DNA from: Clostridia bacterium
Lineage (GTDB): Bacteria; Bacillota; Clostridia; Oscillospirales; CAG-272
NCBI GenBank assembly: GCA_017466445.1
Contig: JAFTUC010000006.1
Location: forward strand, 1,451 to 65,450
DNA: 64,000 bases
Reading direction: 5' to 3'
Part shown: one piece after another, positions 1 through 12,751 of the stretch
Layout of the letters: each line of letters opens with the position of its first letter
How positions within the stretch are numbered: position 1 is the first letter of the stretch
Notes under the pieces: model-generated
Databases searched by the model: none
Seen by the model: only the letters and a program-made list of their open reading frames with translations
What the model was told of the DNA's origin: nothing
Position numbers and translations under genes: made by a program

Positions 1-1224
1 GACGATCGAGAGAACCATTCCGACCGCGATCGCGACCACGAGATCAAACGCAACGGTGAGCACGAAGGTGGTGACGAGCACGAGCACGTCGGCAAGCGGT
101 GCGGTCTTACAAAGATGAACGAATTCGCGCCACTCGCTCATATTATAAGCAACGACAAAGAGTATCGCCGCTATTATCGGCATCGGGATAAGAGATGCGT
201 ACGGCATAAGCACCACAAGGACGAGAAGGAGAACGAGCGCGTGAACGATTCCCGATATCGGAGTACGTCCTCCGTTTTTGACGTTCGCCGCGGTTCGAGC
301 TATCGCTCCGGTAGCGGGGATACCGCCGAAAAGTCCCGAGCAGATATTTCCGACGCCCTGAGCGATAAGCTCGGTATTGGAATTATGCTTATCCTTTATC
401 ATTCCGTCCGAGACGACGCAGGAAAGGAGCGACTCTATAGCGGCAAGTATCGCTATTGTGAACGCGTCGGGAAGGAGCGAGAGCACGGTATCAAGGCTGA
501 GTCCGGGGAAGGAGAAGGCCGGAAGCGAGCCGTTTATACTGTAAAGATCGCCTATCGTATTTACGGGGATACCCGAAAGTGCGACAACGAGAGATCCTAC
601 GAGCACAGCGATCAGCGAGCCGGGGATCTTTTTACTTATGTAAGGCCATATTATCAGAACAGCGAGTCCGATAGCGCCGACAAGAAGCGCCCACGGAGAG
701 ACGGTAGTTATCGATCTTACGACCGCGCCGAGCTTTTCGCTCGTTTCCACCGCGTGAGTTCCCGCAGGAAAGGTGAGTCCCATAAAATCCTTAAGCTGAC
801 CTATTATTATCGTGACCGCGATACCCGAGGTAAATCCGGTCGTTATCGTGCAGGGTATATATTTTATGAGCGAGCCGAAGCGAAGAAGTCCCATAATAAT
901 AAGGATAAGTCCCGCCATCAGGGTCGCTATAACGAGTCCCTCGATACCGCTTCTTGCGACAACGCCCGCAACTATGGTTGCAAACGCGGCGGTCGGACCC
1001 GAGATATTTACCCTGCTTCCGCCGAGCAGAGAAATAACAAATCCGGCAACGATTGCGGTATATATTCCCTTTTCGGGCGAGACTCCCGACGCTATCGCAA
1101 GCGCTATTGAGAGCGGCAGGGCGATTATTGCTACTATAAGTCCGGCTACGAGATCGGATGCGAGTTGCTTTACGGTATATCCCTTCATCGAGTCAATGAT
1201 CTTCGGTCTGAAAATCTTATTCAT
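1..1224 (-). CDS. SulP family anion (sulfate) permease, N-terminal 408 codons; the rest lies beyond the window start
   Basis: My own minus-strand translation from the ATG (complement of 1222-1224) gives MNKIFRPKIIDSMKGYTVKQLASDLVAGLIVAIIALPLSIALAIASGVSPEKGIYTAIVAGF..GGSRVNISGPTAAF, a typical SulP N-terminus. The frame stays open to position 1, so it is absent from the ORF track. Confidence 0.8.
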   Translation of the reverse strand, partial: MNKIFRPKIIDSMKGYTVKQLASDLVAGLIVAIIALPLSIALAIASGVSPEKGIYTAIVAGFVISLLGGSRVNISGPTAAFATIVAGVVARSGIEGLVIATLMAGLILIIMGLLRFGSLIKYIPCTITTGFTSGIAVTIIIGQLKDFMGLTFPAGTHAVETSEKLGAVVRSITTVSPWALLVGAIGLAVLIIWPYISKKIPGSLIAVLVGSLVVALSGIPVNTIGDLYSINGSLPAFSFPGLSLDTVLSLLPDAFTIAILAAIESLLSCVVSDGMIKDKHNSNTELIAQGVGNICSGLFGGIPATGAIARTAANVKNGGRTPISGIVHALVLLLVLVVLMPYASLIPMPIIAAILFVVAYNMSEWREFVHLCKTAPLADVLVLVTTFVLTVAFDLVVAIAVGMVLSIV

Positions 1225-1517
1225 TAAAAACATCTCTTTTCTTAAAAGTCTTTCAAATACCACTAATTATACAACACTTTTAGACAAGTTTCAAGACTTT
1301 TTGCATTTTCTCCTGAAAAGTATCATGCTACGAATCATACGACAAGTAAAGTCTTTCAAGAAAATCTGCATATCTTATGGCAATAAACAAAAACTCCTTC
1401 GCCCCGCCGTGTTTAATTTACTGCATATGATAACACAGACTCGGCTATTATAAGCGAGATCAAATTTACCGTTATCGGAAGACTATATTTACATTTAGTT
1501 TTTTAGCATCATCGTGT

Positions 1518-2408
1518 TTAGCGATCACTTTTTTGTGGTTTAAGTTTATTTTTTCTGTATTTTGCCGGTGTAGTGCCGTAATATCGTGTAAACTCACGGT
1601 AAAATCCCGAAGGAGAGGTAAATCCCACTTCTCTACCGACCTCTTCCACGGTAATATCGGTTGTTACAAGCAGTCTTTCCGCAGCCTGAACGCGCTTTTC
1701 CATCATAACACTATGAAGTGACTTGCCGTAACGTCTACGAACTATACGGTCAAGCTGACGGCCACTTATATAAAGTTCGGCTGCAATACACTCAAGACGT
1801 ATATCCTCTGCACAAAAATCGGCAATTATACTATCCAGACGCATCATCCTGTTGATATCATATCTGTCACTCTCGAACGATTTCTCAACACTCACAGTGT
1901 CGCGCATTCTATCGGATATCGATAGCAGAAGCTCCACAGCCCTTATTGCGGGCAATATCTCCGAGCCTTTTGAATCTTCTGACAAAACATTCATTGAGCT
2001 TTGGCAAAGATCGAGAACATCTCGATAAACCAATGGCCTATCACCCGAGACGTAACGATGCAGTTTTTTGTAAACGTCGCACACTCTGCCCCTATTACGC
2101 TTTTCACATATAAAGCTCCATACCGCGATCTCGCTTTTCGGAGTCGAGCAAAACATACAATGACGTACCCAAGGAGGAACTATCACAAGATCTCCTTGCT
2201 CGAGAATCAAGGTATTTTCATCGGTAATAATCTGCACTCCTCCCTTTGTCACGGCAAACAGCTCTGCCGAAACGTGGCTATGAAGATCGGGGAATTTCTC
2301 ATCCTTCTTACACTCTTCCGAAGATCCACTTATCAGCATGCGGAACTGTATGTTTTCTATAGCGATAGAATATTCTCTCCATTCGGTCGGAGCTATCTTT
2401 ATTTCCAC
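1518..2408 (-). CDS. AraC family transcriptional regulator (cupin sensor domain plus C-terminal HTH)
   Basis: 296-aa ORF. The N-terminal half is cupin-like (GDLVIVPPWVRH). The C-terminus has the AraC HTH signature (VGFTSPSGFYREFTRYYGTTPAKYR). Confidence 0.85.
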   Translation of the reverse strand: MEIKIAPTEWREYSIAIENIQFRMLISGSSEECKKDEKFPDLHSHVSAELFAVTKGGVQIITDENTLILEQGDLVIVPPWVRHCMFCSTPKSEIAVWSFICEKRNRGRVCDVYKKLHRYVSGDRPLVYRDVLDLCQSSMNVLSEDSKGSEILPAIRAVELLLSISDRMRDTVSVEKSFESDRYDINRMMRLDSIIADFCAEDIRLECIAAELYISGRQLDRIVRRRYGKSLHSVMMEKRVQAAERLLVTTDITVEEVGREVGFTSPSGFYREFTRYYGTTPAKYRKNKLKPQKSDR

Positions 2409-2579
2409 CGTACACCACCTCTATAAGATATTATACTTTTATTTTCAGACATCGTCAAGGTTTTTTCTTTTATTTTATGACATGTCATTTCGTAATTGTC
2501 GTAAATCTCTATTTACATATGTGCATTTTATCGTATATAATCGTTTTGATCTATTTCTCTTTACGTAAGGAGTCGTTTT

Positions 2580-4016
2580 ATGAAAAAAAATTTAAACATT
2601 GGACAAAATCGAGAAATGTTCTGGGACGATTATTTAATCGATACTCAAAAAAGCACTGTTTCTTTCAGAATTAACAACCCGATAAAAAAAGAGCTTTGCT
2701 TTGTTTTGGATGAAAAAAGGGAAAAAACAAGTATAAGCTACCCTTGCGTTGTAAAAGACAGCAAAGGTTTTAAAATGTACTATACACCGAGTGACGATCC
2801 AAACGTTTGGCCGCCTGTTAATTATATAAGCCTTATTGAAAGCAAGGACGGTATCAATTGGACAAAGCCTTCGCTTGATATTTTCGACCATCCCGAATTA
2901 AAAGTAAATAACGTCGTACTTGAAGGTCTTGCAGACAGTGCTTCCTTTTTCTACGATAACAACCCCAGCTGCCCCGCAGAAGAGAAGTACAAGGCTATCG
3001 GAAAAACCAAGGGCGAAGTAAACGGAGAAGAAAAAGAAGGACTTTGGTGCTGGACCTCGGCAGACGGATACAACTTCAAGCTTACACATTTTCTCACAGA
3101 CAAGGGACATTTTGATTCACTTAACACTATTGTTTGGCAGAGTGGCAGATATACTTGCTTTTTCAGAGGCTTCCATAACATCATCCCCGGCGGCGAGATA
3201 AGCTGGGCTACGCGTGATGTCAGAGTGATGCATTCGGATGACTTTAAGAATTGGTCTGACCCTAAAATGATAAAATTTTCCGACAATCTCGATTATGCAC
3301 TTTACACAAACAACGCTTTGCCCTATGAAAGAGCGTCACAATATATCGTCGGATTTCCGACCCGCTATTTTGAGCGCAAAGGCTGGACCGAAAATATAAA
3401 ACAAATGCCAAGCTACGGCACCAAAGTAAAGGCTGCGGAAAGCTATGCTCTGCAGGTAGATAAGGATAGAACGGGGCTTGTAAATACCGACTGTATATTT
3501 ATGTTCAGCAGAGACGGCGGCGATAACTGGCACAGATACAGCGAGGCTTTTTACACACCGGGCTATGAAAATGAGTCGAACTGGGTTTACGGTGACTGTT
3601 ATCCGTCCTATAATCTAGTGGATCTCGGCGACGAAAATTATTACTTTTATGACGTTACAGGTCATTTGAGTCACGGCGAGCCCAAATCTATTTACCGTTA
3701 TGCAATTCGCAAAGACGGTTTTGCTTACGCCACATCGGGCGGCGAGGAAGGTGTAATTGTAACAAAACCGCTGATTTTTGACGGTAAATATTTACACCTT
3801 AATTTCTCCACATCGGCTTATGGCTATATCTATATCGATATACTTGATGAAGAGGGCAATGAAATTTCAGGAAGAAGCTTTGAAATTTACGGCGATAATA
3901 TTGACCGAAAAATTACCTTTGAGGACGGAAGCGATTTTTCCGCGTTTGCAGGCAGGCCTGTGAGAATTCGTTTTAAGATCTTAGATGCAAAGCTTTATTC
4001 CATGAAGTTTGAATAA
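2580..4016 (+). CDS. Cytoplasmic BNR/Asp-box beta-propeller protein, glycoside-hydrolase-like (sialidase superfamily), with C-terminal beta-sandwich
   Basis: 478-aa ORF with an AAGGAG RBS 8 nt upstream. Asp-box-like motifs are present (ESKDGINW, SRDGGDNW). There is no signal peptide. It is divergent from the AraC gene. Confidence 0.6.
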   Translation: MKKNLNIGQNREMFWDDYLIDTQKSTVSFRINNPIKKELCFVLDEKREKTSISYPCVVKDSKGFKMYYTPSDDPNVWPPVNYISLIESKDGINWTKPSLDIFDHPELKVNNVVLEGLADSASFFYDNNPSCPAEEKYKAIGKTKGEVNGEEKEGLWCWTSADGYNFKLTHFLTDKGHFDSLNTIVWQSGRYTCFFRGFHNIIPGGEISWATRDVRVMHSDDFKNWSDPKMIKFSDNLDYALYTNNALPYERASQYIVGFPTRYFERKGWTENIKQMPSYGTKVKAAESYALQVDKDRTGLVNTDCIFMFSRDGGDNWHRYSEAFYTPGYENESNWVYGDCYPSYNLVDLGDENYYFYDVTGHLSHGEPKSIYRYAIRKDGFAYATSGGEEGVIVTKPLIFDGKYLHLNFSTSAYGYIYIDILDEEGNEISGRSFEIYGDNIDRKITFEDGSDFSAFAGRPVRIRFKILDAKLYSMKFE

Positions 4017-4028
4017 AGAGGAGAATCA

Positions 4029-4232
4029 ATGAAGCTACCTGAATTTGATCGCTATGCCATAGATATTCACTCCCATTTTAATCATGGAGTACCGGGCGAT
4101 CACATCAATTCCGGTATCGATATGCTTAATCTCAGTACACTAATATTTTTATACGTATGGGTTATACACCATATATTCCGAAGTTTCAAGATATTTTTGA
4201 ATTTTAACAAAAAAATCCGAAAAACATCTTGA
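4029..4232 (+). pseudogene. Truncated metal-dependent hydrolase (amidohydrolase/PHP-like) gene; only about 35 N-terminal codons look genuine
   Basis: Good RBS (GAGGAG). The N-terminus MKLPEFDRYAIDIHSHFNHGVPGDH carries the HxH metal motif. After about position 4135 the frame runs into AT-rich low-complexity sequence and stops at 67 aa. Confidence 0.45.
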
Positions 4233-4257
4233 AAAAGCCATTACCCTCTGTTATAAT
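4229..4257 (+). promoter_or_regulatory. SigA-type promoter for the aldolase gene
   Basis: TTGAAA (4229-4234), a 17-nt spacer, then TATAAT (4252-4257). It lies 30 nt upstream of the ATG at 4287. Confidence 0.55.
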
Positions 4258-4286
4258 TTATTTTATCCATCACACGGAGGTGTAAA

Positions 4287-5264
4287 ATGACAGTAAGAAA
4301 AGGTAATCTGATGTCCGTTCGTGACGATATAAAGCTTCTTGATGCTACGATCAGAGACGGCGGACTTTGCAACAATTTTGAGTTCAGTGACGAATTTGTA
4401 AAAGAGCTCTACAAGACAAACGTAAAGAGCGGAATAGACTATATGGAGTTCGGATACCGCGCAAGCAAGGCGATGTTCGACGAGAGCGAGTTCGGAAAAT
4501 GGAAATTCTGTAAGGAGGAGGACATCCGCGCGATCGTAGGTGACAATCCCTCGGACATGAAGATAGCGGTCATGGCAGACGTTGGAAGATGCGATTACAA
4601 GACCGATTTTCTTCCCAAGAGCGAGAGCGTGATCGACATGGTAAGAGTCGCGTGCTACATCCACCAGATCCCCACGGCAGTCGAGATGATCGAGCATTTT
4701 CATGCGCTCGGATACGAGACCACCTGCAACATAATGGCGGTATCTCAGGCAAACACCGATCAGATAACCCAGGCGCTCGACATGTTATGCAGCACGAGCG
4801 TAGACGTTATCTATCTCGTTGACAGCTACGGCTCTCTCTACCCCGAGAACGCCTCCGAGCTTTCAAAGACCTACATTGCAGCAGCCGAAAACACGGGCAA
4901 GAAGATAGGATTCCATGCACACAACAATCTGAACCTCGCATTTGCGAACACGATAGAGACCATGTCATACGGAGTTTCCTTCCTCGACGCGACCGTTCAA
5001 GGAATGGGCCGCGGTGCCGGTAACTGCCCGATGGAGCTCCTTCTCGGCTTCCTCAAGAATCCGAAATACAACCTTTACCACCTTCTCAAGTTCATCGAGA
5101 AGTATATGCTCATGCTCAGAGAGGAGGGCGTCGTGTGGGGCTACGATCTCCAGTATATGTTTACCGGGTTTCTTAACCGTCACCCACGCGAGGCCATCGA
5201 TTTTACGTCGAAGGACCGCAAGGATTATTCGGAGTTCTACAAGTCGCTGCTTGAAAATTACTGA
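4287..5264 (+). CDS. HMGL-like / DRE-TIM metallolyase family aldolase (pyruvate carboxyltransferase fold)
   Basis: 325-aa ORF with a GGAGG RBS. Family motifs are present: LLDATIRDGG near the N-terminus, HAHNNLNLAFANT, and MGRGAGNCPMELL. Confidence 0.8.
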   Translation: MTVRKGNLMSVRDDIKLLDATIRDGGLCNNFEFSDEFVKELYKTNVKSGIDYMEFGYRASKAMFDESEFGKWKFCKEEDIRAIVGDNPSDMKIAVMADVGRCDYKTDFLPKSESVIDMVRVACYIHQIPTAVEMIEHFHALGYETTCNIMAVSQANTDQITQALDMLCSTSVDVIYLVDSYGSLYPENASELSKTYIAAAENTGKKIGFHAHNNLNLAFANTIETMSYGVSFLDATVQGMGRGAGNCPMELLLGFLKNPKYNLYHLLKFIEKYMLMLREEGVVWGYDLQYMFTGFLNRHPREAIDFTSKDRKDYSEFYKSLLENY

Positions 5265-5274
5265 TTTCAAGTTC
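5214..5274. repeat. Direct repeat copy 1 (61 bp): last 16 codons plus stop of the aldolase gene, plus 10 nt
   Basis: Identical base for base to 7459-7519 (gaccgcaaggattattcggagttctacaagtcgctgcttgaaaattactgatttcaagttc). Confidence 0.95.
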
Positions 5275-5277
5275 AAA

Positions 5278-5305
5278 ACAAGCCTTCGTTGAGGGCTTGT
5301 TTTTT
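5278..5305 (+). terminator. Rho-independent terminator directly after repeat copy 1
   Basis: Stem acaagcc/ggcttgt with a 9-nt loop, followed by TTTTT. Confidence 0.6.
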
Positions 5306-5335
5306 GGATTTACGATTTAGAATAAGGAAAATGTT

Positions 5336-7435
5336 ATGAAAAATGACAAACAGGAAAAGGAATATATAAGTGATAATACGCAACTGATGCAAGAGTGGGA
5401 TTATTCCAAAAATCAAGGGCTTACGCCAACTTCAGTAGCAAAATACAGCAACAAAAAGATGTGGTGGATTTGTCCCAAGGGACATAGTTATCAGTCTCCT
5501 GCAGCTAGACGTGCTAGTGGTGTAGGTTGTCCGTATTGTAGTGGAAGACTTGTAATAGAAGGGGAAAATGACCTTGCAACACTAAGACCTGATCTGGCGA
5601 AACAGTGGAATTTTGAAAAAAACCATCCGCTATTGCCGTCACAGATTAAACCAAGAAGCGGAAAGAAGGTATGGTGGATTTGTGACAAAGGACACGAATA
5701 TGAGGATACCGTAACGCACAGAACGGGAGGAAGGGGTTGTCCATATTGTTCCAATAAAAGGGTTTTGAAGGGATATAACGATTTTGAAACGGTTTATCCG
5801 GAATTTGCAAAAGAATGGCATCCTACTAAAAATGGAGATTTGATGCCGCATATGATTGTGGCAGGTAGTCATTTAAGGGTGTGGTGGCAATGTGCTGCTT
5901 GTGGAAATGAGTGGGAAACTGCAGCAATGAAACGCCTTGGCTGTCCTGCTTGTTCTGCAAAAAGAACGACGTCTTTTCCCGAGCAAGCAATATTTTTCTA
6001 TATAAAGCAAGTATATCCTGATGCGATTAACAATTATAAATTCGAAGGTGTTGAGTTCGATATATATATTCCCTCCGTAAACACCGCAATTGAGTATGAT
6101 GGAGTTTTTTATCATAAAAATGTTCGAGTTATAAACAAGGATTTTAACAAAGATAATTTGTGCAAGCAAAACGGAATAACTCTTTTTAGATTCAGAGATC
6201 CGAAATTACCGAAAACAGATTATGCAACTGTAATAGTTTGTACGGATTCTTATCGTGATGAAGAGTTTGAAAACGCTATAAAAGAACTTTTTGGATATCT
6301 AAAACCAACAGTAATGCCAAACATTTCTTTGGAAGATGATAAAGCTATTATACTGAAAAGGAGTCAGCAACATCGCAAAGAAAACAATTTAATATCCCTT
6401 TTTCCGGCAATTGCCGCACAGTGGAATTATGAGAAAAACGCCCCCTTGACTCCTCAGTATTTTCCGCCGAAAAGCAACAGAAAGGTATGGTGGAAATGTG
6501 AAAACGGACATGAATGGGAAACGACTATCGGATCGCGTACTGCCGGAACAGGTTGCCCGTTCTGCAGTGGTAACAGAATGCTGGTAGGCGAAAACGATTT
6601 AGTAACGCTTCGTCCCGATATAGCGGCTGAATGGAATTACGAAAAAAACGGGGAACTTCTTCCAGAACAGGTGAGCGTGTTTTCCAATAAGAGAGTGTGG
6701 TGGAAATGCTCTGGATGTGGATTCGAATGGATAACTAGTCCGGGAAATAGAGACGATGTACTTTGTAAAAAATGTAAATCAAAGTTGCTCGGTGAAAAAA
6801 GAAGTAGGGTTGCTGCCGAGAAAAATCCTTTATGTGAGAAATATCCGGAAATTGCTGCTCAATGGCATCCCACAAAAAACGGGAATCTAACAGCTAAAGA
6901 CATCTCGTGCAGTTCTGGTTTGCGAGCATGGTGGATTTGCAGTAAAGGACATGAGTGGCAATCGTATGTAAGTAACAGAACAAAGGATAATTTGGGCTGC
7001 CCATACTGCGGGAATCAAAAAATCCTTCCCGGATTCAACGATTTGAAATCACAGTTTCCAAATTTAGCAAAAGAATGGCACCCCACAAAAAATGAACTCT
7101 TGTTTCCTGAGCAAGTTTTTCCCAAAAGCTCCAAAAAGGTATGGTGGATTTGTCAAAACGGACATGAATGGGAAGCGACTATCGGATCGCGTACTGCTGG
7201 AACAGATTGCCCATTCTGCTCGGGAAAAAGAGCGTGGGCAGGCGAGAACGATTTGTTAACGTTAAGACCTAATGTTGCAGCTGAATGGAATTACGCTAAA
7301 AATGGTCAACTTACACCTGAAAAGGTGACAGTGTTTTCCAACAAAAAAGTGTGGTGGAAATGTTCGGAAGACCACGAGTGGGAGGCAGTAATACAGCGTC
7401 GCAGTAAAGGTTTTGGAAAATGTCCGGTTTGTTAA
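5336..7435 (+). CDS. Multi-zinc-ribbon protein: 8 treble-clef-like modules (3 + 5) flanking a PD-(D/E)xK (Vsr/DUF559-like) nuclease core
   Basis: 699-aa ORF. The repeating unit is W(N/H)xxKN..LxP..V..SxKKVWWxCxxGHEW..(G)CPxC(S)G. Module starts fall at W21, W91, W161, W363, W433, W510, W581 and W651. The central segment FPEQAIFFYIK..VEFDIYIP..AIEYDGVFYHK resembles restriction-endonuclease-fold cores. Confidence 0.8.
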   Translation: MKNDKQEKEYISDNTQLMQEWDYSKNQGLTPTSVAKYSNKKMWWICPKGHSYQSPAARRASGVGCPYCSGRLVIEGENDLATLRPDLAKQWNFEKNHPLLPSQIKPRSGKKVWWICDKGHEYEDTVTHRTGGRGCPYCSNKRVLKGYNDFETVYPEFAKEWHPTKNGDLMPHMIVAGSHLRVWWQCAACGNEWETAAMKRLGCPACSAKRTTSFPEQAIFFYIKQVYPDAINNYKFEGVEFDIYIPSVNTAIEYDGVFYHKNVRVINKDFNKDNLCKQNGITLFRFRDPKLPKTDYATVIVCTDSYRDEEFENAIKELFGYLKPTVMPNISLEDDKAIILKRSQQHRKENNLISLFPAIAAQWNYEKNAPLTPQYFPPKSNRKVWWKCENGHEWETTIGSRTAGTGCPFCSGNRMLVGENDLVTLRPDIAAEWNYEKNGELLPEQVSVFSNKRVWWKCSGCGFEWITSPGNRDDVLCKKCKSKLLGEKRSRVAAEKNPLCEKYPEIAAQWHPTKNGNLTAKDISCSSGLRAWWICSKGHEWQSYVSNRTKDNLGCPYCGNQKILPGFNDLKSQFPNLAKEWHPTKNELLFPEQVFPKSSKKVWWICQNGHEWEATIGSRTAGTDCPFCSGKRAWAGENDLLTLRPNVAAEWNYAKNGQLTPEKVTVFSNKKVWWKCSEDHEWEAVIQRRSKGFGKCPVC
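6481..6710 (+). repeat. Intragenic DNA duplication, copy A (zinc-ribbon modules 4-5)
   Basis: Aligns with 7135-7364 at a constant in-frame offset of 654 nt. The first ~85 bp are about 90 percent identical (aaaggtatggtgga..aaaacggacatgaatgggaa.cgactatcggatcgcgtactgc). Confidence 0.85.
7135..7364 (+). repeat. Intragenic DNA duplication, copy B (zinc-ribbon modules 7-8)
   Basis: See copy A. The 654-nt (218-codon) offset matches W363->W581 and W433->W651. Confidence 0.85.
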
Positions 7436-7458
7436 AAACAAAAATAATATATATTAAA

Positions 7459-7519
7459 GACCGCAAGGATTATTCGGAGTTCTACAAGTCGCTGCTTGAA
7501 AATTACTGATTTCAAGTTC
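7459..7519. repeat. Direct repeat copy 2 (61 bp): orphan copy of the aldolase 3' end
   Basis: Identical to 5214-5274. It is not attached to any upstream aldolase coding sequence. Confidence 0.95.
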
Positions 7520-7548
7520 GGCAAGCGCTTTTAAGATCCAAATCTGAT

Positions 7549-7585
7549 CACCCGAGGGCAAAAACTCGCCTTCGGGTGGTTTTTA
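7549..7585 (+). terminator. Rho-independent terminator, probably the original aldolase terminator
   Basis: Stem cacccgaggg / ccttcgggtg (one mismatch), followed by GTTTTT. Confidence 0.7.
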
Positions 7586-7665
7586 TTTCCCGCGGATAGC
7601 GTACTTAGAAAATCTACGCATGCAAAATGTATATTTTTCGATATTCATGCATATTCGCACGATTT

Positions 7666-7683
7666 TATGCATTTTTATTCGCA
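7666..7683. promoter_or_regulatory. Distal ARG-box-like site
   Basis: tatgcatttttattcgca matches TNTGAATWWWWATTCANW at 14 of 16 defined positions. It lies about 190 bp upstream of the argG promoter. Confidence 0.3.
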
Positions 7684-7861
7684 CGTCCGATTCCCCGTTC
7701 CGAGGCGTCAAAAAAATGACAGTCCCTCCGTCTTTTACGCTCACAAGGCACTTCAAAGAGTCCAAAACCCCGTTTTTTATTGTTAATATGCACAATATTA
7801 GCAGTCTGTTATTGTGAAGAATTACAAAAAGAGACAAAAATAAAAAAAATCGCGAAAAGCA

Positions 7862-7910
7862 CTTGAATATTTATTCGCTTTGCGTTATAATCATAGCATA
7901 AATATTCACA
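7862..7910 (+). promoter_or_regulatory. argG promoter overlapped by two ARG boxes (ArgR/AhrC operator)
   Basis: -35 TTGAAT (7863-7868), 17-nt spacer, -10 TATAAT (7886-7891). Box 1 is cttgaatatttattcgct (7862-7879, 2 mismatches). Box 2 is atagcataaatattcaca (7893-7910, 3 mismatches). Both are scored against TNTGAATWWWWATTCANW. Confidence 0.6.
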
Positions 7911-7933
7911 GCGGTCACGGAGGCTATATAATA

Positions 7934-9166
7934 ATGGATAAGAAAAACATAAAAAAAGTCGTTCTTGCATACTCGGGCGGACTTGACACCTCGATAATAA
8001 TTCCCTGGCTCAAGGAAAACTACAACAACTGCGAGGTCATCGCGGTATCGGGCAACGTAGGACAGGCAGACGAGCTCGAGGGTCTTGAGGAGAAGGCACT
8101 TAAGACGGGCGCTTCCAAGCTCTACATCGAGGATCTCACCGAGGAATTCGTAAACGACTACATCATCCCCACCGTAAAGGCAGGCGCTCTTTACGAGGAC
8201 TACATGCTCGGCACCTCGTTCGCAAGACCGGTAATCGCAAAGAGGATCGCGGAGATCGCGATCGCAGAGGGCGCTGACGCCATCTGCCACGGATGCACCG
8301 GCAAGGGCAACGACCAGGTAAGATTCGAGCTCACCATCAAGGCATTCGCTCCCGACATGCCCATCATCGCTCCCTGGAGAGAATGGAACATCAAATCGAG
8401 AGAAGAGGAGATCGACTACGCAGAGGCGCACAACGTTCCTCTTAAGATAAACAGAGAGACCAACTACTCCAAGGACAAGAACCTCTGGCACCTCTCTCAT
8501 GAGGGTCTCGACCTTGAGGACGCAGGAAACGAGCCTCTCTACGACAAGGAAGGCTTCCTTGAGATGGGCGTTTCTCCCATCAAGGCTCCCGACGCTCCCA
8601 CCTACATCGAGCTTGACTTCGTAAAGGGTTCTCCCGTAGCACTGAACGGCAAGGAGATGTCCGCAAAGGATATCATCCTCGAGCTCAACAAGCTCGGCGG
8701 AGAAAACGGAATCGGACTTCTCGACATCATCGAGAACAGACTCGTAGGTATGAAGTGCAGAGGCGTATACGAGACTCCCGGCGGAGCTATCCTCTACGAT
8801 GCACACAAATATCTCGAGACCATGACTCTTGACAAGATGACCGCTCACAAGAAGCAGGAGCTTGCCATCACCTTTGCGGATCTCGTCTACAACGGACAGT
8901 GGTTCACTCCCCTCAGAGAAGCTCTTTCGGCGTTCGTTGACAAGACTCAGGAGAACGTTACCGGAAAGGTAAGACTCAAGCTCTACAAGGGCAACATCAT
9001 CAAGGCAGGCGTATGGAGCGACTATTCGCTCTATTCAGAGGAGATCGCGACCTTCGGAGAAGACAACGTTTACAATCAGGCTGACAGCGCCGGATTCATC
9101 AACCTCTTCGGACTCCCGATCAAGGTTCAGGCACAGGTAAACGCCAAGAACAGCAAGAAAAACTAA
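7934..9166 (+). CDS. argG: Argininosuccinate synthase
   Basis: [20 protein letters not shown]..., the classic ArgG N-terminus. A GGAGG RBS lies at 7919-7923. The track ORF start at 7880 lies upstream of this RBS and within the promoter/ARG-box region, so I reject it. Confidence 0.95.
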
Positions 9167-9216
9167 AAGCGCACAATTAACTTCAAATAAATATTTTTTC
9201 TGAAAGGAAACATGTC

Positions 9217-10089
9217 ATGAAAAAAATCTTAGCACTTATTCTCGCAGCAGTTATGCTCACACTCACCTTCACCTCTTGCGCAGGAAGCAAGACCAAAATC
9301 GGAGTTCAGTCCGGAACCACCGGCGAATTCTATGTAAAGGGAAACGCCGATATGGAGCTTCCCGGATATTCTAACATCGAGTGCAAGGCATTCGACAACG
9401 GCGGTCTTGCAGTAAAGGCACTTCTCGACGGTCAGATCGATTATGTCGTCATCGACAACGAGCCCGCAAAGCAGCTTCTGGCAAAGAATCCCGATGACAT
9501 AAAGATCATTGATATCGCTCTCACCACCGAGCAGTATGCTTACGGTGTTGACAAAAATCAGCCCGAGCTTCTCGAGGACGTAAACGAGATCATCGCAGAG
9601 ATCAAGGAAAACGGAACTCTCAAGGCTATTTTCGACAAATATGCAGCTCTTGAGTATGATGATGAAGGCAATGTCATCGGCGGTGACGAGGCTATCGAAG
9701 GCATCGCAAGTGCTTCTAAAAACGCATCCAAAGCAGCTCAGCAGCTTGTAGTTTCCACAAACGCAGCCTTTGCTCCTTATGAATACAAGAAGGGCGACAA
9801 ATTCGTCGGAATCGACATGGAGATCGCTAAGCTTATCGCTGACGAGCTCGGTCTCGAGCTTGTTATCGAGGACATGGCTTTTGAGTCGGTCGTTACATCG
9901 GTAGGCAAGAACAACGTCGACATCGCAATGGCAGGTCTTTCGGTCACCGCTACCCGTAAGCAGTCGGTCAACTTCTCTGATGCTTACTATGAGGGCGCTT
10001 ACCAGGTCCTCATCGTCAAAAAGGACAACACCGAATTTGACAAGTGCACCACCAAAGAAGACGTGGAAAAGATCCTTAAAACCAAATAA
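9217..10089 (+). CDS. Amino-acid ABC transporter substrate-binding lipoprotein (SBP type 3), circularly permuted domain order
   Basis: Signal peptide plus lipobox (LTFTSC). Residues ~27-150 match the C-terminal half of GlnH-type binding proteins. Residues ~177-270 (LVVSTNAAFAPYEYKKGDKFVGIDMEIAK..LSVTATRKQSVNFSDAYY) match the N-terminal half. Confidence 0.85.
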   Translation: MKKILALILAAVMLTLTFTSCAGSKTKIGVQSGTTGEFYVKGNADMELPGYSNIECKAFDNGGLAVKALLDGQIDYVVIDNEPAKQLLAKNPDDIKIIDIALTTEQYAYGVDKNQPELLEDVNEIIAEIKENGTLKAIFDKYAALEYDDEGNVIGGDEAIEGIASASKNASKAAQQLVVSTNAAFAPYEYKKGDKFVGIDMEIAKLIADELGLELVIEDMAFESVVTSVGKNNVDIAMAGLSVTATRKQSVNFSDAYYEGAYQVLIVKKDNTEFDKCTTKEDVEKILKTK

Positions 10090-10787
10090 TGAAGGCTTGG
10101 AATCTGTTCTATAAGCAGTTCATTACCTACGGCGGATACCGCAGCGTTCTCAACGGTCTTTTAGTGACTGTTGAGATCGCTGTTTTTGGACTTATTATCG
10201 GTATAGTCATAGGTACTTTGATCGCTTCTGTAAAAGTTACGCCCAAGACCCGACTTCTTCCTAAGATACTGGAAAAGATATGCGACGTTTACGTTGCCTT
10301 TTTCCGCGGTACTCCTATGGTAGTACAGCTCCTTATCGGATACTTTGTCCTCATGCCCTCGCTCGGTATCGCGATCGACGGCGTTATTGTCGCTATAATA
10401 GTATTCGGTCTTAACAGCGGAGCTTATGTATCCGAGATCATGCGTGCCGGTATCCAATCGGTAGACGCGGGGCAGCTTGAGGCAGGCAGAGCTGTGGGTC
10501 TTCCCTACTCTGTCGCGATGATGAAGATCGTCATCCCGCAATCTATAAAAAACATCCTTCCGACGCTCGGAAACGAATTTATCGTTCTCGTCAAGGAAAC
10601 ATCGGTGGTCAGCTTTATAGCGGTCGCTGACATTACAAAAGCATTCCGTTCGATCGGAGACGCAAACTACGAATACATAATTCCCTACTGTATACTCGCG
10701 CTTGTATATCTCGTTATGGTGCTCGGTATCACACTTGCTATCAAGCTGCTTGAAAGGAGGCTGAGACGAAATGAGCGAAAAGCATAA
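10089..10787 (+). CDS. Polar amino-acid ABC transporter permease (HisM/GlnP type)
   Basis: 232-aa polytopic ORF. Its start overlaps the upstream stop (TAATG). The family region [32 protein letters not shown] is present. Confidence 0.9.
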
Positions 10788-11658: not shown

Positions 11659-12591
11659 ATGAAAAAAGTATTTATTGACGGAAAAGCGGGAACTACCGGT
11701 CTGCGAATTGAGGAACGTCTGTCCTCTCGCGACGATGTGAACGTAATTTCCCTTCCCGAAGAGCTTCGCAAGGACATCGCGGCTCGAAAGCAGATAATAA
11801 ACGAATCCGATTTCGTTTTTCTCTGCCTGCCTGACGATGCAGCACGCGAAGCGGTATCACTCATAGAAAACGACACAACTGTCGTTATCGATGCGTCGAC
11901 CGCGCACCGCACAAATCCCGACTGGGCGTACGGATTTCCCGAGCTCGGAAGAGAGTTTGAGGAAAAGATCATAAATAGCCGCCGCATTGCAGTTCCCGGA
12001 TGTCACGCAAGCGGATTTATCGCTCTTGTATATCCTCTTATCAAAAACGGTTTCATATCGCCCGACACTCTTCTCAGTGTTTATTCTCTTACCGGTTACA
12101 GCGGTGGAGGTAAAAAGATGATCGCCGATTACGAATCGGACGAGCGTTCTGCGCTTCTCGGTGCGCCCCGTCAGTACGCACTCTCGCAGTCTCACAAGCA
12201 TCTCCCCGAAATGACAAAGATCACCGGTCTGTCCAATCCACCGATCTTTTCTCCCGTAGTTGCCGATTTTTATTCAGGAATGGAGGTCACGGTCCCGATA
12301 TTCGGCACGTGGCTCGAGGATCGCACGATAGATGACATAAGAGAACTATTCAATGAAGTTTATCCTTCTTCCGGCCTTGTGCGCTACACAGAAGGCACTG
12401 ACGAGGGCGGATTTATCAGCGCAGGCGCTCTTTCCTGCAAGGACTCTATGTCGATCGAGGTTTACGGAAACGACGATCGCATACTGCTCGTAGCGCGATA
12501 CGACAATCTGGGCAAGGGTGCCTCGGGCGCTGCTGTCGAGTGTCTGAATGTCAAGCTCGGATGCGACAAGACCAAGGGACTTGACGTCTAA
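11659..12591 (+). CDS. argC: N-acetyl-gamma-glutamyl-phosphate reductase (short, type-2 form)
   Basis: 310-aa ORF. MKKVFIDGKAGTTGLRI.. and the active-site region AVPGCHASG are present. Confidence 0.9.
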   Translation: MKKVFIDGKAGTTGLRIEERLSSRDDVNVISLPEELRKDIAARKQIINESDFVFLCLPDDAAREAVSLIENDTTVVIDASTAHRTNPDWAYGFPELGREFEEKIINSRRIAVPGCHASGFIALVYPLIKNGFISPDTLLSVYSLTGYSGGGKKMIADYESDERSALLGAPRQYALSQSHKHLPEMTKITGLSNPPIFSPVVADFYSGMEVTVPIFGTWLEDRTIDDIRELFNEVYPSSGLVRYTEGTDEGGFISAGALSCKDSMSIEVYGNDDRILLVARYDNLGKGASGAAVECLNVKLGCDKTKGLDV

Positions 12592-12609
12592 TATCAAAAT
12601 CAAAGCGGG

Positions 12610-12644
12610 ACTTATGCTCCTTTTTATAGAAAGGGAGCATAAGT
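12610..12644 (+). terminator. Hairpin after argC (weak terminator or attenuator)
   Basis: acttatgctcctt / aagggagcataagt with one bulge, followed by TTTC. Confidence 0.45.
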
Positions 12645-12751
12645 TTCTGCGCTGTCATAAAATGATTTTCCAAAGGCTTTAAGGACATTCAAAGCTCTCG
12701 GAAAGGTATTTTATGGCCTTAAAGTTTCTTATCCAAGAAAGGATCTTACAT

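Follow-up and report, generated by a model that had tools for sequence, protein, structure and literature searches.

A single-gene cassette with a Vsr-like zinc-finger nuclease at a duplicated aldolase 3′ end in a Clostridia bacterium: a candidate free-standing homing element

An AT-rich segment with one nuclease gene lies at the 3′ end of an aldolase gene in a Clostridia bacterium, between two identical copies of the last nucleotides of that gene. It was found in a stretch of 64,000 nt from contig JAFTUC010000006.1 (assembly GCA_017466445.1), hereafter the window, to which positions refer unless another contig is named. The reading favored here is that of a homing-endonuclease cassette, free-standing and equipped with a substitute for the end of its target; this reading is given a probability of roughly 0.55. 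An insertion/empty polymorphism, a predicted nuclease fold, the lack of a recombinase, mosaic identity tracts and a family-wide pattern were observed.

Structure of the inserted segment

The target gene (4287–5264, + strand, from the list of open reading frames, ORFs) encodes an HMGL-like aldolase of 325 amino acids (aa; Pfam HMGL-like, E = 7.8e-25). Its nearest NCBIfam family is 4-hydroxy-2-oxovalerate aldolase, with a match under the cut-off of that family. A perfect direct repeat of 61 nt is formed by positions 5214–5274 and 7459–7519, with a spacing of 2,245 bp; the match reaches 64 nt (5211–5274 and 7456–7519) if one mismatch, AAG versus AAA, is included. A 61-nt identity within 6 kb is beyond chance. 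Copy 1 (5214–5274, + strand) continues the aldolase frame; it holds the final 16 codons (DRKDYSEFYKSLLENY) and the stop (TGA), followed by 10 nucleotides beyond the gene.

Directly downstream of copy 1, the terminator scan and RNA folding place the element's own terminator (5275–5310, + strand), with a 13-bp stem and a T run. The hairpin at 5275–5303 has a folding energy of −19.8 kcal/mol (z = −5.25), and its stem pairs also with the final bases of copy 1. An AAGGA ribosome-binding site then precedes the sole gene of the cassette (5336–7435, + strand), which encodes 699 aa; the ORF list holds no other ORF between the two repeat copies. From its stop an AT-rich spacer of 23 nt (7436–7458, + strand), the right end of the inserted DNA and missing in the empty allele described below, leads to copy 2 (7459–7519, + strand). 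Copy 2 is an orphan fragment of the aldolase 3′ end, also perfectly kept in a second, diverged filled allele (L096). As indicated by folding and by comparison with the diverged filled allele and the empty allele, the right flank (7520–7660, + strand) includes the native aldolase terminator (7546–7581; −25.3 kcal/mol, z = −4.0).

The GC content is 0.31–0.45 in the segment, compared with 0.50–0.52 in the aldolase gene and 0.52–0.57 in the downstream gene argG. No inverted repeats were found at the element ends, no transposase domain in the Pfam search, and no integrase in the cassette or, by a limited test run, in the 64-kb window. No paralogue of the nuclease was found elsewhere in the window. 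Across 4000–8200 no Rfam family was matched at E ≤ 1, and there was no match to a group I or group II ribozyme. This layout had been proposed in the sequence-only reading and was borne out: the identity of the copies, the frame of copy 1, the different terminator followed by a ribosome-binding site and one 699-aa ORF, the higher AT content relative to both flanking genes, and the lack of integrase, transposase and terminal inverted repeats.

Filled and empty alleles

Further contigs were gathered by look-up of the exact aldolase protein, which gave L001, L002, L003 and L004/L005. L001, L003 and L004/L005 represent three samples, are 99.97–99.98% identical to the window over 11.3 kb and contain both 61-mers. 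The empty allele is provided by L002 (NCBI GCA_045532225.1), a conspecific genome in which the aldolase protein is identical and the flanks are 98.6–99.0% identical. Its only 61-mer runs straight into GGCAAGCG(T)TTTTAAG, with the native terminator, as in the window, and argG next. An insertion had been predicted to have an empty site with the aldolase stop and ctgatttcaagttc joined to ggcaagcg, and exactly this site is present in L002; the terminator downstream of copy 2, which had been taken for the original one, follows the lone 61-mer there.

The locus is thus polymorphic for presence or absence at one fixed site, L002 being empty while the window, L001, L003, L004 and L096 are filled. Two single-nucleotide polymorphisms (SNPs) in the flank distinguish the two states: the filled alleles have C at 7528 and G at 7546, whereas the empty allele has T at both. 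The argG gene (argininosuccinate synthase by Pfam; 7934–9166, + strand) lies outside the element and was used as a marker of the host background; the window gene is about 98.6% identical to that of L002 and 95.4% identical to that of L096. With argG, an ABC transporter and argC around it, the cassette has bacterial genomic surroundings.

Misassembly had been named as a concern, and a mis-joined repeat in metagenome assembly was weighed as the source of the duplication. A Logan unitig, L006 (2,244 nt), indeed shows a k = 31 graph breaking at the repeat. Against this, the two-copy structure recurs in three independent assemblies, two of which consist of MEGAHIT k141 contigs whose 141-mers are longer than the 61-nt repeat, and the diverged allele also has the element followed by copy 2. 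The duplication is consequently not regarded as an assembly artefact, and the chance that it is one is put close to nil. L006 had also been considered as a circular form of the element; this was rejected, as its length is that of the insert (2,184) plus 30 plus 30, produced by the break of the k = 31 graph. The last 40 nt of the 61-mer had no match in a metagenome contig collection, and the lineage is represented instead in ENA (European Nucleotide Archive), NCBI and Logan data. A palindrome-like sequence of 16 bp, TAAGATCCAAATCTTA, was spotted by eye in the empty allele, where it is hit by the 7546 T-to-G SNP. Because dyads this short are expected by chance, it is not claimed as the target.

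The nuclease

Pfam identified eight DUF4379 treble-clef zinc finger units in the 699-aa protein (E = 4.3e-150), three before and five after a central domain at about aa 202–340. The 3 + 5 fingers presumably read a long DNA site. The central domain (aa 202–340; 5939–6355, + strand) was defined from an alignment of 29 homologues, an AlphaFold2 model and a Foldseek search. It matches phrog_559, phrog_3339 and phrog_9084, which are annotated as HNH or homing endonuclease, and is shared by 113 of the 120 best database homologues. In the 29-homologue alignment E216, Y222, E240-x-D242, E253-x-D255-G256, H260, K272 and R285 are invariant.

A sequence search of the PDB with the central domain gave nothing useful and NCBIfam gave no family, so that a search at the level of the fold was needed. 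The AlphaFold2 model, built from the same alignment, had a predicted local distance difference test score (pLDDT) of 90.3. Its top Foldseek matches in the PDB were 3r3p_B/A, the catalytic domain of I-Bth0305I, with a probability of 1.00, E = 2.6e-3 / 6.1e-3 and a template modelling (TM) score to the target of 0.61–0.69, followed by Vsr (1cw0) and a DUF559-like protein (3hrl). As modelled, the nuclease domain has a Vsr-like fold that is closest to the homing endonuclease I-Bth0305I. The earlier assignment of the cargo as a nuclease-domain protein is in line with this predicted fold.

I-Bth0305I (PDB 3R3P), the prototype of the EDxHD/Vsr-like homing endonucleases, is a Vsr-like, homodimeric enzyme with a footprint of about 60 bp that leaves 2-nt 5′ overhangs (PMC3239194). 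The likeness to the cassette protein lies in the predicted nuclease fold and in the multidomain build with extra DNA-binding modules. I-Bth0305I is encoded within the recA gene of a phage, inside a group I intron; its nuclease domain is C-terminal and it lacks DUF4379 fingers. The cassette gene, by contrast, is free-standing in a bacterial chromosome, with the nuclease domain placed centrally between 3 + 5 fingers.

These properties bear on a transposon-like insertion with a very long target-site duplication, in which two nicks about 61 nt apart would be followed by fill-in. Identical repeats do directly border the insert. Enzymes of the Vsr type act as nickases, and two widely spaced nicks are conceivable for a protein with many fingers, in keeping with the I-Bth0305I footprint. 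However, the overhangs of that enzyme are only 2 nt long, and the cassette differs from transposons and insertion sequences in having neither a transposase nor terminal inverted repeats. Moreover, the repeat is 61 nt here and ranges from 13 to over 300 nt in relatives, some with mismatched copies, and a fixed stagger predicts neither. This route is considered very improbable.

The family to which the protein belongs is large. A word-indexed search gave at least 7,961 proteins at E ≤ 1e-10, and a profile of the nuclease domain matched 26,061 clusters of 50% identity at E ≤ 0.001 and 5,567 at E ≤ 1e-10. In IMG/VR, at least 448 viral contigs contain relatives, as do 127 GenBank phages, where some are labelled 'homing endonuclease'; the source labels on family proteins read 'zinc-ribbon domain-containing protein' or 'hypothetical'.

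Mosaic identity at the aldolase site

The second allele of the filled locus, L096, is a Joint Genome Institute (JGI) contig of 3,063 nt. Compared with the window, it is 100% identical at the left end of the element, 99.5% in the N-terminal fingers, 99.8% in the nuclease domain, and 100% in copy 2 and the next 81 nt. The right flank (7520–7660) has one mismatch, at 7622, and both SNPs of the filled alleles are present. Beyond about 7660 the identity falls to 64% in the intergenic DNA and to the value given above in argG. The pattern fits lateral transfer with co-conversion, in which the element and about 140 nt of its flank would have been copied into a different background.

Within the element, roughly 76 of the approximately 90 differences between the window and L096 fall into a variable block of about two zinc fingers (6461–6860, + strand), as located by a mismatch histogram and a protein alignment; the remainder is 99.5–100% identical. 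Part of the changes (against L096:1201–1600, approximately) increase the likeness to a paralogous pair of C-terminal fingers at 7088–7365. The sequence of the block suggests intragenic gene conversion or finger swapping.

Other aldolase alleles point to the repeat boundaries. In L087–L095 the aldolase occupies another neighborhood, ffh-rpsP-KH-aldolase-GFO, and is 83–84.5% identical to the window gene. In L087 (84.5% over the gene) the longest identical run, of 67 nt, exactly covers the repeat, and the next longest is 31 nt. The aldolase of L179/L181 is about 84% identical over the first 800 nt; the 114 nt that lead up to the repeat hold a single mismatch, and the 61-mer itself 4. From pairwise and multi-allele alignments with L179, these 114 nt (5097–5210, + strand), which abut the left boundary of the repeat, are read as a probable recombination or co-conversion tract. 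At the right boundary all five contexts compared (window, L002, L087, L095 and L179) diverge right after AAG(T/C)TC. Since the L087 and L179 comparisons both switch state at the left boundary and the five contexts diverge at the right one, the alignments suggest that the boundaries are recurrent recombination breakpoints.

Gene content varies around the same positions. In L179 (5606–6253), L181 (1819–2466) and L098 (2086–2730) the aldolase and argG are separated by a GDSL-lipase-like gene. The aldolase–argG interval has at least four states (nothing, cassette A, lipase, cassette B plus lipase) and is a local hotspot of gene-content change. In the other neighborhood, about 370 extra nt directly 3′ of the aldolase in L087 (4989–5460; also in L088–L090) are missing in L095 (4989–5100). 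This insert, whose start coincides with that same AAGTTC boundary, does not resemble the nuclease and is rich in direct and inverted repeats of the AGTGATATT type, like a miniature inverted-repeat transposable element (MITE) or a repetitive extragenic palindromic (REP) element.

The mosaic tracts can also be accounted for if the nuclease is passive cargo. A circular or linear fragment with the gene and 61 bp of homology would have integrated once by RecA-type (Campbell-like) recombination and then been exchanged in the ordinary way, the nuclease having another role, such as restriction-like defense or competition, and not driving its own spread. A single crossover of a circle with the chromosome yields exactly the observed structure, and the L096 and L179 identity tracts show homologous exchange that need not have been induced by a nuclease. 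The variable repeat lengths in the family are likewise as in homology-based events. Nevertheless, the nearest characterised relatives are homing enzymes, and among the PADLOC defense families only a weak, partial match was obtained (DruE, E = 0.0012, 14 bits). The explanation is considered unlikely, also in view of the distribution of the family described next.

Distribution and targets of the family

A family scan of one genome per species, with a 10-sequence alignment as query, gave 80 loci, and in 74 of these the ORF is complete. The loci are mostly from gut or rumen metagenome-assembled genomes of Clostridia; Bacilli, Saccharibacteria, Lentisphaerae, Bacteroidales, Elusimicrobia, Gastranaerophilales, Eggerthellaceae and Alphaproteobacteria were also represented. 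For 27 of these 74, the distance between the nuclease ORF and the 3′ end of a transfer RNA (tRNA) or transfer-messenger RNA (tmRNA) gene is 59–564 nt. The ORF is in every case on the 3′ side of the RNA gene, which is upstream on the same strand in 22 cases and downstream on the opposite strand in 5.

RNA-gene ends are also repeated past the ORF. In L015 the copy comprises 46 nt of tRNA-Arg, counted from the anticodon loop, and 9 nt more, with 94% identity and a period of 2,613; apart from the nuclease, the interval contains only short ORFs (≤ 95 aa), mostly overlapping the nuclease gene. A degenerate copy of 44 nt of tRNA-Met follows the ORF in L080. The final 15 nt of tmRNA are repeated downstream of the ORF in L030, and 13 nt of tmRNA in L035 and L062. 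In L054, L079, L081 and L086 a copy of the RNA-gene 3′ end likewise recurs downstream.

For a test of enrichment, the 600 nt upstream and 1,500 nt downstream of each nuclease ORF were compared, with ORFs of at least 400 aa from the same loci as controls. Exact flanking repeats of at least 15 nt were found for 8 of 61 nuclease ORFs and 1 of 96 control ORFs (Fisher p = 0.002), and repeats of at least 13 nt for 14 of 61 and 4 of 96 (p = 0.0005). Passive cargo leaves unexplained both this enrichment around the nuclease gene only and the 36% of members that abut tRNA or tmRNA 3′ ends in the right orientation. One locus lends it some support: in L054 the nuclease gene is paired with a 330-aa ORF (9709–10701) that has an AbiTii-like N-terminus (Pfam E = 8e-7) and overlaps it. 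This segment is associated with tRNA-Pro and bounded by repeats with a period of about 3.5 kb, and possibly represents a version of the cassette with two genes.

Integrase-driven islands have as their hallmark direct repeats that restore a 3′ end, be it of a protein, tRNA or tmRNA gene. The repeats of the cassette could accordingly be attL and attR, and the cassette a minimal satellite or a decayed remnant like a cis-mobilisable element (CIME), with a tyrosine or serine recombinase encoded elsewhere and the nuclease as mere cargo. The repeat begins at the anticodon loop in L015 and L080 and near the 3′ end in L030, L086, L081 and L054; larger repeat-bounded segments exist in L079 (5.1 kb) and L024 (4.1 kb). 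In addition, a 60%-identical homologue of the cassette protein, P0028 in L097 (114–2057), adjoins a tyrosine integrase gene (Phage_integrase) and a gene for a PBECR4-domain protein, and may lie inside a larger integrative element, although no flanking repeat was found around it.

Against this stands the lack of a recombinase in the element and, within the limited test, in the window. The 134 genes that flank nuclease ORFs at the 74 loci contain no recurrent family, the largest having 3 members. Phage_integrase is not among the 25 commonest families of these neighbors, and serine recombinases number 2. A phmmer search with a tyrosine integrase found integrase-like ORFs at 3 loci only, each at least 2.5 kb from the nuclease gene. 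Because at least 8 target sites share only the nuclease gene, often as the sole cargo, many different trans-acting integrases would be needed. Dependence on an integrase is therefore held to be doubtful.

Nuclease domains that are 72–93% identical to one another adjoin tRNA-Pro(tgg), tRNA-Pro(ggg), tRNA-Leu(cag), tRNA-Ser(gct) and tmRNA, which would fit a conserved cleavage module with changing recognition modules. Target-specific clades were considered and rejected: the tmRNA-adjacent nucleases are not monophyletic in the nuclease domain, and only those of L035 and L062 are near-identical.

The closest homologue, P0034, has 66% amino acid identity and belongs to another lineage. It is located in the same general neighborhood, directly upstream of the GDSL-lipase gene and argG, as the sole ORF between two 35-nt repeats (97% identical, period 1,956). 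Judged against the unoccupied L179 and L181, these repeats are copies of the lipase gene's −10 box and leader. On this basis the duplication is taken to heal whichever functional end the insertion would sever.

Two further loci show more complex arrangements. L018 has a 52-nt, 100% identical partial duplicate of tRNA-Ser(tga) (8933–8984 and 9125–9176), 192 nt from the intact gene, and a 40-nt perfect repeat (5295–5334 and 9093–9132) around a 3.8-kb segment with the nuclease gene. The arrangement resembles insertions that are nested, or that followed one another, at a single tRNA. In L079 two related ORFs of about 82 aa (8984–9238 and 12424–12669, minus strand), with the motif LNLCYLSP-IV-DILEY-NP and no Pfam match, are each preceded by a copy of the repeat from the tRNA-Pro end. 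It seems that the nuclease gene entered the first of these tandem units.

Proposed mechanism

For the homing cassette, the following course is proposed. The enzyme would break an aldolase 3′ end that lacks the cassette, and the break would probably fall close to the left repeat boundary (codons K|D, about 5211–5216). It would be repaired by recombination with an occupied allele as template, so that the cassette is copied in. Copy 1 would then be the element-borne surrogate 3′ end and copy 2 the displaced native end, left downstream. Because the cassette brings its own copy of the last 61 bp and a terminator, the aldolase would remain intact and terminated. The founding duplication might have arisen from a break without homology on the right flank, repaired from the donor on one side and by end joining on the other, or from recombination of the chromosome with a circle holding one 61-mer. 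We infer cleavage, the target site, the escape of the occupied allele from re-cutting and the origin of the repeat alike.

Several observations weigh against this proposal. Self-immunity is unexplained, because both copies are identical and a site of fewer than 61 bp would still be whole where the cassette is present; the escape might come from a site longer than 61 bp or one that reaches across the repeat on both sides, from the two SNPs of the flank or from expression at a very low level. No promoter-like site was found from the element terminator to the start of the ORF; expression by read-through would be usual for a free-standing homing gene. EDxHD is not present in its literal form, the conserved acidic residues and histidine being arranged as ExD...ExDG...H. 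L096 is a single metagenome contig of about 3 kb and possibly chimeric. About 47 of the 61 testable family loci are without a flanking repeat of at least 13 nt, which could reflect decay or ordinary homing without duplication. Finally, the integrase gene beside the L097 homologue, and the lengths and positions of the tRNA repeats (anticodon loop, 3′ end), which resemble classical integrase att sites, point away from homing.

The homing-like mechanism that the sequence-only reading had put forward is nevertheless the best supported, by the co-conversion-like tract, the breakpoints at the repeat boundaries and the behavior of the family, and we infer it on these grounds. The duplication itself could represent a new route of integration, in which nuclease-stimulated recombination of an element-borne target copy replaces an integrase.

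Comparison with known systems

The same reading also named an uncharacterised insertion mechanism as an alternative; as a refinement, the geometry has a precedent in fungal mitochondrial mobile endonuclease ORFs (mORFs) with C-terminal duplication, in Allomyces atp6 and in Glomus atp6, atp9, cox2 and nad3 (PMC3630166). The order is identical: the host 5′ part, an in-frame replacement 3′ end, the endonuclease ORF and the displaced native 3′ end. The mORFs are mitochondrial and encode LAGLIDADG or GIY-YIG enzymes, and their inserted C-terminus has usually diverged from the native one. The cassette, in contrast, is bacterial and encodes a predicted Vsr-like zinc-finger nuclease, with identical copies and a terminator between gene and ORF.

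The domain combination has been described for proteins of phage introns of groups I and II, which join several CapR/DUF4379/DUF723-like modules to a Vsr/EDxHD-like nuclease and form a large unrecognised set of homing endonuclease genes with thousands of unannotated relatives (PMC12350094, 2025). The cassette protein resembles them in its several zinc-ribbon-like modules of about 60 aa and its nuclease. Those proteins are intron-borne, reside in phage genes and have a C-terminal nuclease, whereas the cassette is intron-less, chromosomal and flanked by a duplicated target end.

Two other kinds of element resemble the cassette in part. Integrase islands and cis-mobilisable elements have repeats that regenerate the target 3′ end and prefer tRNA and tmRNA 3′ ends, and they need a tyrosine or serine recombinase; the cassette, unlike them, has no recombinase within it or recurrently near its family members. 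The free-standing homing endonucleases of the T4 Seg and Mob types are intergenic single-gene selfish elements that spread by break repair and co-conversion of flanks. Some target tRNA gene regions (SegB), and their own promoter is weak or missing. They act in phage co-infection and not in bacterial chromosomes, and we know of no target-end duplication among them.

Other features of the window

A second presence/absence polymorphism was seen at 1226–4140, where a block of 2.9 kb in the window is represented by about 16 nt in L002. It comprises an AraC/cupin regulator (1518–2408, minus strand), a 478-aa protein without a Pfam domain (2580–4016) and a 67-aa ORF, and no obvious flanking repeat was seen. 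At 115–1453 (+ strand), long overlapping low-complexity ORFs rich in R, K, Y and D (331 aa and 213 aa) are probably not genes, and lie opposite a sulfate-transporter gene called in other assemblies.

Significance

The domain combination and the geometry are each already known, from phage introns (2025) and from fungal mitochondria, respectively. A limited full-text literature search found no description of bacterial chromosomal solo cassettes with an end-regenerating duplication and a preference for tRNA and tmRNA, and nothing relevant on bacterial homing endonuclease genes with 3′-end duplication or tmRNA association appeared in the literature searched. The wider proposal is tentative and is given somewhat less than even odds: single-gene cassettes in bacterial chromosomes, encoding modular Vsr-type nucleases with zinc-finger arrays that would amount to natural zinc-finger nucleases, may form a widespread unrecognised class that homes to conserved gene ends and carries the end it disrupts. 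Its targets would be tRNA genes, tmRNA genes, the 3′ ends of protein genes, and promoters or leaders, and the insertion would be silent. Retargeting might proceed by a change of fingers, given the similar nuclease domains beside different tRNAs.

In these proteins a compact cleavage domain is joined to arrays of fingers, each about 60 aa long, with variation from allele to allele. Should every finger read a few base pairs, the proteins would offer a natural, evolvable and programmable nuclease scaffold, and the aldolase/argG locus makes filled, empty and differently filled alleles available. If the reading is correct, many small insertions next to tRNA and tmRNA genes that resemble integrase sites yet lack an integrase would be accounted for, and the 'bring your own gene end' strategy of fungal mitochondria would extend to bacteria. 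Bacteria, above all gut and rumen Clostridia, would then hold a very large unannotated family of selfish single-gene elements.

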